Shown: positions 50,156 through 51,379, counted from the stretch's first letter. The stretch is 64,000 nucleotides of DNA from Escherichia coli (GCF_003334305.1 NZ_QOWS01000008.1), one strand, 5' to 3'. Numbers and translations are program-made. The notes: a model not told the origin generated them from the sequence alone.

Positions 50156-51379
50156 ATGTCAATTGACTTTACCCCAGGTATAATAAATACATATCACGGC
50201 GATATTTATAACTGCACAACAAATACCGATAATGTTAAAACGCCAGACACATCGAAGTGGCCTTGTGATAATTGGGAAGAACAACAACCCATTAATTCCA
50301 CATTCTCTGGAGAAGGATACAACCCTGAACAATTTGATTTAGCGCAACAACAACTCCAACAAATTAATGCATGCCACACGAACACCACATATACAAATGC
50401 AGACTACTCAAAAGTTGTGGTTCAACTTGTAAGTCTTATTAATAACATTGAAACGATAAGTTCGACACCACTTACGCAACAGACACAATCAATACTTAAT
50501 CGGATTCATAACATTAGATACGAAAAGGATAAGGATTCTGTATGTCAAATCATTGTTGTCGTTAATCCAGAACCCAACAATCCAATCATAACTAAAATTC
50601 TCGTAGAAGAAGGAATACCCGAAATATTCAGTGTCCAAACCGTTTCTTCCGATAATAAAAATTTTGCTGGGCTACGAGCTGACTTACCAACTGATATAAG
50701 AGACATTCAAAGCTTGTACTTAAAAATGGCGAAGCTGTATATTGAGCACAGTGAAAATGAAAATAGGATGGAAGCCCTTGCTGGATGCGACTTTATTGAT
50801 TTCAACATGACAGGGCAAGATATGTCCAGGCTAGTCCTAACCTTATCAAATTTTTATTTTGAAGATCTACTTAATATAAATTTCACTGACGCAAATTTAT
50901 TTAACACTATTTTTTCACACAAGGAAAATCCCATCCCCAAACTACATAAATATGAACAACATCTTGACAAACAAATCAATGGCTTGTTTTCTACATTGTT
51001 AACTATTAATGACAACTCTTTACGCGCGAAAGCGGAAATTGCTTCGAGAATAATTGATTTCTTAGAGGCAAAGGTAGTGAATCTTTCATTTGATGACATA
51101 TTAAAATATAAGCAAGAGTTCAAAAAAATATGTTATAAACAACTTCAAGAGTTTACAACACCCTCTCTATACAATAAAATTCAAAAATGGGCAACAATGT
51201 CTAAAAATGAATTCATAGCATTTCATTACGAGACACTTCAACCCGAAAAGATTTCATACCCCTTTTATTTAAAGAGAGATCTGCCTAATGAAAAAGATAT
51301 AAATTATGGGGTGGAAATAGAAATACCATCTGGCAAAAGAATTCGCTTATCAAATCATTATCAGAATATAATACCATAA
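50156..51379 (+). CDS. yhiS: Hypothetical protein, intact YhiS-like ORF
   Basis: 407-aa ORF with AAGGAA ribosome-binding site; AT-rich; sits where I recall the IS5-interrupted yhiS pseudogene in K-12, upstream of slp; identity is by position only. Confidence 0.55.

Follow-up and report, generated by a model that had tools for sequence, protein, structure and literature searches.

What does an uninterrupted reading frame mean at a position where the K-12 strain of Escherichia coli carries a broken gene? The question is raised by a 64,000-nucleotide stretch of one E. coli genome (NZ_QOWS01000008.1), hereafter the window, in which an open reading frame (ORF) of 407 codons lies between arsC and slp, at the border of the acid-fitness island. 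A sequence-only reading of the window had placed this ORF where K-12 has yhiS split by the insertion sequence IS5, and had proposed that it may preserve the ancestral and possibly functional form of the gene. The ORF is real; alignment identifies it as an intact copy of yhiS, which belongs to a minority class among strongly divergent alleles, and its predicted product contains a short run of pentapeptide-repeat units. The elements on which the first part of the argument relies are the following:

50156..51379, plus strand: yhiS coding sequence, from the ATG start through 407 amino acids (aa) to the stop codon (ORF list; 100% identity to the coding sequence of E. coli H15; ratio of nonsynonymous to synonymous substitution rates, dN/dS; no indels)
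50146..50150, plus strand: AAGGA, a Shine-Dalgarno sequence separated from the ATG by 5 nt (direct reading of the DNA)
49577..50155, plus strand: AT-rich intergenic region, the presumed promoter region, with 31-34% G+C in the composition profile
51380..51625, plus strand: yhiS-slp intergenic region, in which a terminator scan found no intrinsic-terminator-like site

The G+C content of the ORF is 33.7%, within a surrounding block of about 2 kb at 30-37%, and the flanks of this block reach about 52% on the arsBC side and about 47% in slp. Given this composition, stop codons are expected at a frequency of 0.073 per codon, i.e., about one in 14 codons, and 407 consecutive open codons would arise with a probability of about 5e-14; the longest run without a stop in the AT-rich block measures 411 codons, against a mean of 80 and a maximum of 177 in 2000 shuffles. 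The ORF is therefore not a chance one, and the AT-rich frame with its good ribosome-binding site stands as it was first described. So does the portrayal of its product as hydrophilic and rich in Asn, Ile and Lys, since the grand average of hydropathy is -0.47 and the three residues make up 9.3, 10.3 and 6.6% of the sequence, respectively; the isoelectric point is 5.2. No hydrophobic stretch suited to a signal peptide or a membrane helix was found in the protein, the Kyte-Doolittle maximum being 1.04 in a 19-residue window. Consensus promoter sites upstream of yhiS were no commoner than in shuffled sequences, and no Rfam family overlaps the ORF.

The assignment to yhiS is based on position, on annotated relatives and on the reconstruction of the K-12 gene. 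The gene order of the window is arsR-arsB-arsC, an ArsR-like regulator on the minus strand, a permease, yhiS, slp, dctR, yhiD, hdeB, hdeA and hdeD, and the place of yhiS between arsC and slp is conserved in all of the 11 loci examined. In E. coli H15 the same protein, 100% identical, is annotated as hypothetical (WP_000020625.1), and UniRef proteins at 97% identity to the ORF bear the name YhiS. At the same locus, the K-12 strain NEB10-beta has two yhiS pseudogene fragments with an IS5 transposase gene between them; from the junction sequences, the element measures 1195 bp, carries the terminal repeat GGAAGGTGCGAATAAG and is flanked by a 4-bp TTAG target duplication. When IS5 and one TTAG copy are removed in silico, an in-frame ORF of 407 codons is obtained, colinear with the window ORF over 1,224 nt without a single indel and with the same start, stop and length. 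The homologous site of the insertion can thus be located in the window:

50897..50900, plus strand: site homologous to the K-12 IS5 target, at codons 248/249 within the pentapeptide segment; TTAT here and TTAG in K-12 (junction sequences and reconstruction)

On this alignment, the ORF is the intact orthologue of K-12 yhiS (b3504; UniProt P37635), with which it shares the arsC-slp locus and from which it differs in being uninterrupted, in belonging to another haplogroup and in lacking both IS5 (insH11 in K-12) and a C3A8 tract described below. The K-12 gene is regarded as an IS5-disrupted pseudogene (PMC1174868; PMC8170033), and the comparison with its fragments bears out the sequence-only reading: the window ORF is related to yhiS, it sits where the K-12 copy is split, and the window is colinear with K-12 on both sides of the insertion point, with no mobile element inside the gene. 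Of the 5,426 complete E. coli genomes, only 352 have the yhiS::IS5 junction of K-12, both of the examples listed being K-12 derivatives; because it is found in so few of them, the uninterrupted state is ancestral and the K-12 state derived.

An uninterrupted state that is ancestral does not make the allele of the window the parent of the K-12 allele. The window ORF and the reconstructed K-12 gene share 86% nucleotide and 76% amino acid identity (400 residues compared), while their flanks, once IS5 is removed, are 99.5-100% identical in both arsB-arsC and slp-hdeD. The identity to K-12 is 92-96% at the 5' end of yhiS (97.8% in nt 1-150) and 78-86% across 50454-51254. The distribution of the alleles was counted in the 5,426 complete genomes with the 3' 800 nt of yhiS as the query:

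Genomes with the 3' part of yhiS: 4,360 of 5,426
Window-type yhiS, at least 95% identity: 422 of 5,426 (about 8%)
Window query, 90-95% identity: 2 genomes
Window query, 80-90% identity: 3,936 genomes
K-12-type yhiS, at least 95% identity to a K-12-type query: 3,732 genomes
Third yhiS class, first met in a divergent Escherichia lineage: 2 genomes

The third class has 78-80% nucleotide identity to the window and K-12 types, next to an slp that is 99% identical; its allele is intact, encodes 410 aa with 72% amino acid identity and keeps the arsRBC-yhiS-slp context, and the members of its cluster include isolates named "Escherichia sp." (HH41S, MOD1-EC5287). Mosaic alleles that join a window-type 5' part to a K-12-type 3' part are also found. 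Judged from these comparisons, the window allele represents a minority haplogroup and is not the parent of the K-12 allele, so that the earlier proposal of a preserved ancestral form holds for the uninterrupted state and fails for the allele itself. The synonymous divergence (dS) of the window allele from five other intact alleles amounts to 0.27-0.32 over the whole gene, with about 0.28 for the K-12 type, and rises to 0.4-0.7 in codons 151-300. Neutral divergence of this size could not have built up in the time over which the flanks have stayed 99.5-100% identical, and the allele classes are therefore much older than the genome around them, whether selection has maintained them or recombination has brought them in. 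As an observation on the neighbouring gene, the slp copies of the window (51626-52192), of K-12 and of the divergent Escherichia lineage (locus L011, 7483-8049) share 99.1-99.5% identity, whereas for arsC, gor and rlmJ the identity of that lineage to the window is no higher than 93-94.5%; the slp beside this hypervariable gene is either unusually conserved or recently exchanged.

Has the frame been kept because it encodes something? Against the same five intact alleles, dN/dS is 0.42-0.44 (about 0.43) and falls to 0.12-0.21 in codons 251-300. The 407-codon frame shows no indel with respect to the alleles of K-12 (reconstructed), S1-CAM, 19KM1803, A16 and EC571, and the length is conserved at 407-410 aa in all three classes. 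Because of this ratio and the lack of indels, we infer that yhiS is, or long was, protein-coding, under moderate purifying selection over a long time; the suggestion that the copy of the window might be functional and not a pseudogene is in line with these values, and with the absence of frameshifts relative to the other intact alleles.

On the other hand, the gene has been lost repeatedly. In chuA-positive strains it is cut to its first ~372 bp and bears frameshifts in addition, and the 3' two-thirds are absent in 1,066 of the 5,426 genomes (about 20%). The O157 allele has a -1 frameshift in a C/A homopolymer tract, leaving 371 aa, LD26-1 has multiple frameshifts and 1919D62 an ISKpn26-associated deletion. 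The homopolymer tract has its counterpart in the window:

51240..51250, plus strand: CCCGAAAAGAT, at the place of the C3A8 tract of K-12-type alleles (nucleotide alignment of 8 alleles, columns ~1085-1095)

The C3A8 tract itself is absent from the window, and reads C4A6 in O157 and C4A7 in LD26-1; it is an indel hot spot. Altogether, the pattern argues for a real but conditionally dispensable accessory gene that has been knocked out repeatedly. The RefSeq annotation, produced by the Prokaryotic Genome Annotation Pipeline (PGAP), tags the yhiS of E. coli A16 (locus L009, 3001-4224) and EC571 (locus L010, 3001-4224) as "frameshifted", with an end at nt 1117, although in both the frame stays open over all 407 aa. 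The tag probably arises from the use of the 371-aa O157 form, itself frameshifted, as protein evidence; the 3' fragment of K-12 is tagged in the same way, and its reconstruction is in frame. Intact alleles mislabelled in RefSeq could distort pan-genome counts.

What kind of protein would such a gene encode? The sequence-only reading had recognised no motif in it; in this respect it has to be corrected, as the following segments can be delimited:

50774..50923, plus strand: ten consecutive pentapeptide-repeat units, aa 207-256 (register, shuffles and profile match to PDB)
50156..50386, plus strand: N-terminal 77 residues, polar and rich in Ser/Thr/Asn/Pro/Ile, probably disordered (AlphaFold predicted local distance difference test, pLDDT, 22-40)

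The centres of the pentapeptides (L, F or M) fall at residues 208, 213 and so on to 253, and D or N precedes them in 7 of the 10 units, following the pattern A(D/N)LXX. A run of 10 units was reached in none of 20,000 shuffles, whose maximum was 8, and the ten centre positions are hydrophobic in each of the 16 aligned alleles. In a profile comparison with the PDB, the best match was the Rfr pentapeptide protein Rfr32 (2f3l; E=0.007, aa 203-253), followed over the same segment by weak matches to TL15 (3n90) and then QnrB1 at E ~3; pentapeptide-repeat proteins were the only ones to recur among the weak PDB matches. The Pfam Pentapeptide model stays below threshold (i-Evalue 7.9, score 6.6) and covers aa 237-255 only. 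The likeness to the pentapeptide-repeat proteins (PF00805; Rfr32, TL15 and QnrB1, 2xtw) consists in the five-residue register of aa 207-256; unlike them, YhiS has only ten units, and the other ~350 of its 407 aa match nothing. With respect to Qnr and MfpA, the repeat segment is too short for DNA mimicry. From the register, the ten units would build about 2.5 turns of a quadrilateral beta-helix.

Domain or structure prediction, which had been proposed as a check, gave no significant family match and AlphaFold2 models of low confidence: the mean pLDDT was 44.6 with an alignment of 16 alleles, and 42.9 for the C-terminal 232 residues with 10 alleles. The alignments behind them lack depth (72-99% identity), neither model is usable, and the pentapeptide fold is therefore assigned from the sequence periodicity by itself. 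A Foldseek search of the PDB with the first AlphaFold model gave no match at E<=0.001, and the matches listed are noise. The models weakly suggest four parts: the first ~77 aa would be disordered, ~80-165 would form an alpha/beta region, and the repeat segment would be followed by a C-terminal domain of helices at ~266-360. The first model shows no secondary structure before residue 57; this N-terminal part is the best conserved between the window and K-12 types, and the only one left in the truncated chuA-positive strains. The tripeptide LFN within ANLFNTIF (aa 246-253) was considered as a PipB2-like LFNEF, the kinesin-binding motif of PipB2, and rejected, as other alleles vary at this place (NLGDTIF, NLCDTIF).

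The searches for relatives returned hardly anything beyond the gene itself. Among 1.84 billion representative proteins, phmmer found 35 yhiS-like matches, nearly all of them fragments, and one other, marginal match to a 705-aa generic pentapeptide-repeat protein (E=7e-4); single-sequence and profile searches of 5.8 billion proteins returned only E. coli and Shigella names. No phage copy was matched, and three "plasmid" matches were discarded as mislabelled chromosomes, being records of 4.8-4.9 Mb. As far as these searches reach, yhiS is a chromosomal gene, detected only in Escherichia and Shigella. No NCBIfam family was matched, nor any PADLOC family at E<=1; PHROGs gave nothing significant (one match at E=0.078), and Pfam only the sub-threshold models DUF3492, Pentapeptide and DUF5894. 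A scan of the GTDB species representatives with two heavily degenerate IUPAC DNA patterns gave no match, E. coli included, and had no positive control; the same patterns matched 10/11 and 9/11 of the local yhiS loci, including K-12 and the truncated chuA-positive allele. The scan is uninformative, because the E. coli representative should have matched, and it is not taken to speak against yhiS in E. albertii or E. fergusonii; both stretches may be missing from the representative genome, or patterns as degenerate as these may escape the scan.

Taking the evidence as a whole, we lean with moderate confidence toward a genuine, dispensable gene, silenced by H-NS/StpA, for a soluble binding protein. 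H-NS and StpA probably keep yhiS mostly silent, like the AT-rich island beside it: in K-12, the arsC/yhiS intergenic region figures as a "promoter island" bound by H-NS (PMC3661553), and yhiS has been named among the high-affinity StpA sites (bioRxiv 10.64898/2026.02.10.705075). Its product would be a soluble protein of 47 kDa without signal peptide or membrane segment, in which, tentatively, an N-terminus that is polar and disordered would be followed by a small alpha/beta region, the beta-helix of ~2.5 turns and a helical C-terminal domain. It might bind another macromolecule as an adaptor or modulator and not act as an enzyme; this role, put forward with low certainty, is favoured because of the lack of a catalytic signature together with a repeat module typical of binding scaffolds. 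YhiS would be neither needed for the GadE/YdeO acid-resistance circuit nor wired into it, as overexpression of YdeO in K-12 induced slp-dctR and left yhiS unaffected (PMC4222967).

Several observations weigh against this account. Both AlphaFold models, uninformative at aa 207-256 (pLDDT 26-46), draw helices and not a beta-helix there; no significant family match nor homologue of known function appears to exist among the proteins searched; dN/dS is close to 1 in codons 101-150 and 351-400, which speaks against strong constraint; and the overall value of 0.43 is high for a housekeeping gene and ambiguous, fitting a mixture of constraint and decay as well. Furthermore, the H-NS and YdeO data are indirect, as they come from K-12, where yhiS is disrupted and belongs to the other haplogroup.

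The same observations lead to other explanations, of which that of a functionless relic is the least remote, although we judge it unlikely. It would see in yhiS an orphan ORF derived from AT-rich foreign DNA, silenced and in this strain not yet disabled, and it would account for at least five independent kinds of disruption in a small sample, for the fifth of genomes without most of the gene, for the two stretches of codons with dN/dS near 1 and for the failure to detect homologues outside Escherichia/Shigella; moreover, neither deletion of yhiS in K-12 nor a plasmid with the K-12 pseudogene changed the minimal inhibitory concentration of chlorhexidine (PMC8170033). It does not explain why three haplogroups 14-22% apart in nucleotides keep a frame of 407-410 codons with essentially no indels at 34% G+C, why dN/dS is clearly below 1 overall and above all in codons 251-300, or why the pentapeptide register is kept in all alleles. 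That YhiS belongs to the acid-fitness island as a component or regulator, as its position beside slp-dctR might suggest, is scarcely credible: it adjoins slp in an AT-rich, H-NS/StpA-bound block, and Z4907, upstream of slp, was taken as the border gene of the island in a comparison of 2022 (PMC9729726), but the YdeO/Gad circuit was characterised in K-12, where yhiS is disrupted (PMC4222967), YdeO acts on slp-dctR and not on yhiS, and the protein has no regulator-like or chaperone-like domain.

Two further explanations would make the protein a secreted effector or a conflict protein. As a type III secretion substrate similar to EspX or PipB2, of the locus of enterocyte effacement (LEE) or of the E. 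coli type III secretion system 2 (ETT2), YhiS would carry its signal at the N-terminus, bind the host through its beta-helix and be decaying where a working injectisome is missing. A loose parallel exists with the order of NleL (EspX7), i.e., an unstructured N-terminus, a pentapeptide beta-helix and a C-terminal domain (PMC3013003). The first 40 residues are rich in Ser, Thr, Asn, Ile and Pro and contain no Leu; the DNA is AT-rich, foreign-looking and bound by H-NS/StpA, the evolution is fast with discrete alleles and recurrent pseudogenisation, and espX1 has been reported in urinary isolates, effector-annotated genes thus occurring outside the described LEE pathogens. Attractive as it is, we hold this to be quite improbable. 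The likeness to the EspX family, NleL and SopA is one of domain order (PMC3013003) and of an AT-rich E. coli accessory gene, whereas YhiS has no HECT-like domain or sequence homology to them and its repeats span 50 instead of ~200 residues, i.e., they are four times shorter. No similarity to known effectors was seen: the NleL and SopA structures (PMC3013003) are not among the PDB matches at E<=10, and neither the 1.84-billion-protein scan nor the 5.8-billion-protein profile search returned an EspX/PipB member. The resemblance of the N-terminus is an impression only, the window has no chaperone or secretion genes near yhiS, and no paper naming yhiS, Z4907 or ECs4376 as a candidate was found in the literature. 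The other explanation, which we regard as very improbable, makes YhiS a conflict protein, either an anti-phage or immunity factor or the target of one, with its classes under balancing or diversifying selection. Some pentapeptide proteins, such as Qnr and McbG, are immunity factors against gyrase poisons, and QnrB1 is among the weak PDB matches; the sharply local peak of divergence, the high dS of codons 151-300, the bimodal identities (422 genomes at or above 95%, 2 at 90-95% and 3,936 at 80-90%) and the mosaic recombinant alleles would all fit. However, there is no PADLOC match, the locus is not mobile and lies outside any recognisable defence island, a segment of ten repeats falls far short of what DNA mimicry in the manner of Qnr/MfpA would take, and selection-free introgression from divergent Escherichia lineages could explain the pattern equally well. 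It is in this frame, and as a distinctly doubtful proposal, that yhiS may rank among the most polymorphic genes of the E. coli backbone, with discrete ancient classes kept by balancing or diversifying selection for an antagonistic role, as an EspX-like effector or a conflict/immunity factor, and with the pentapeptide beta-helix as the interaction surface. The silenced, dispensable gene for a soluble binding protein remains the reading that we prefer.

Besides yhiS, the window holds some neighbouring features of their own interest. The arsC-yhiS gap (48172-49576) contains a divergently transcribed pair. One member, on the minus strand at 48172-48531, is a regulator of the ArsR/SmtB family (NF033788 at 61 bits, which exceeds the cut-off); the other is a permease of 337 aa whose similarity to the SO_0444 Cu/Zn efflux and SaoE transporters stays below threshold. 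H15, LD26-1, S1-CAM-04-C, 19KM1803 and EC571 have this pair, while K-12 (~66 bp instead), O157 and A16 do not, and it looks like an indel polymorphism extending the ars cluster. On the other side of yhiS, slp starts at 51626 and encodes 188 aa according to the annotation of H15 and a match to TIGR00752; the mechanical ORF (51461-52192) has 243 aa, and its upstream extension is probably not translated. To the right, dctR is followed by yhiD-hdeBA in the window and K-12, and directly by chuS-chuA in the chuA-positive strains (loci L003 and L005); the right-hand neighbourhood of slp-dctR also differs in the divergent lineage of locus L011. Rfam matches above the gathering score are the AgrB antisense RNA (45670-45753), beside dinQ and between gor and arsR, and the small RNA ES205 (56676-56747), downstream of hdeD near gadE.

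What was already known of this locus is the gene yhiS, its position and its disruption in K-12, and intact copies are annotated as hypothetical in thousands of genomes; for the pentapeptide segment and for the extreme, discrete allelic divergence, no description was found in the searchable literature. The finding itself is ordinary, and for studies of population genetics and function yhiS is of modest interest. The IS5 of K-12 yhiS mediates spontaneous deletions of 14-16 kb in its neighbourhood, namely one of 14 kb (gad island) and one of 16.4 kb (yhiM-yhiS) (bioRxiv 10.1101/063271; PMC13034041), and in strains without this element the acid-fitness island should therefore be genetically more stable. 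In the literature, yhiS serves K-12 studies as a neutral pseudogene reference gene. Strains with an intact yhiS are the right background for function tests, as data from K-12 knock-outs and from the ASKA clone concern a broken gene. From the biological point of view, yhiS is a genus-restricted orphan that combines long coding constraint, deep allelic divergence and frequent loss within one species, and if this divergence reflects selection rather than imported DNA, yhiS would flag a so far unrecognised antagonistic interaction in E. coli.

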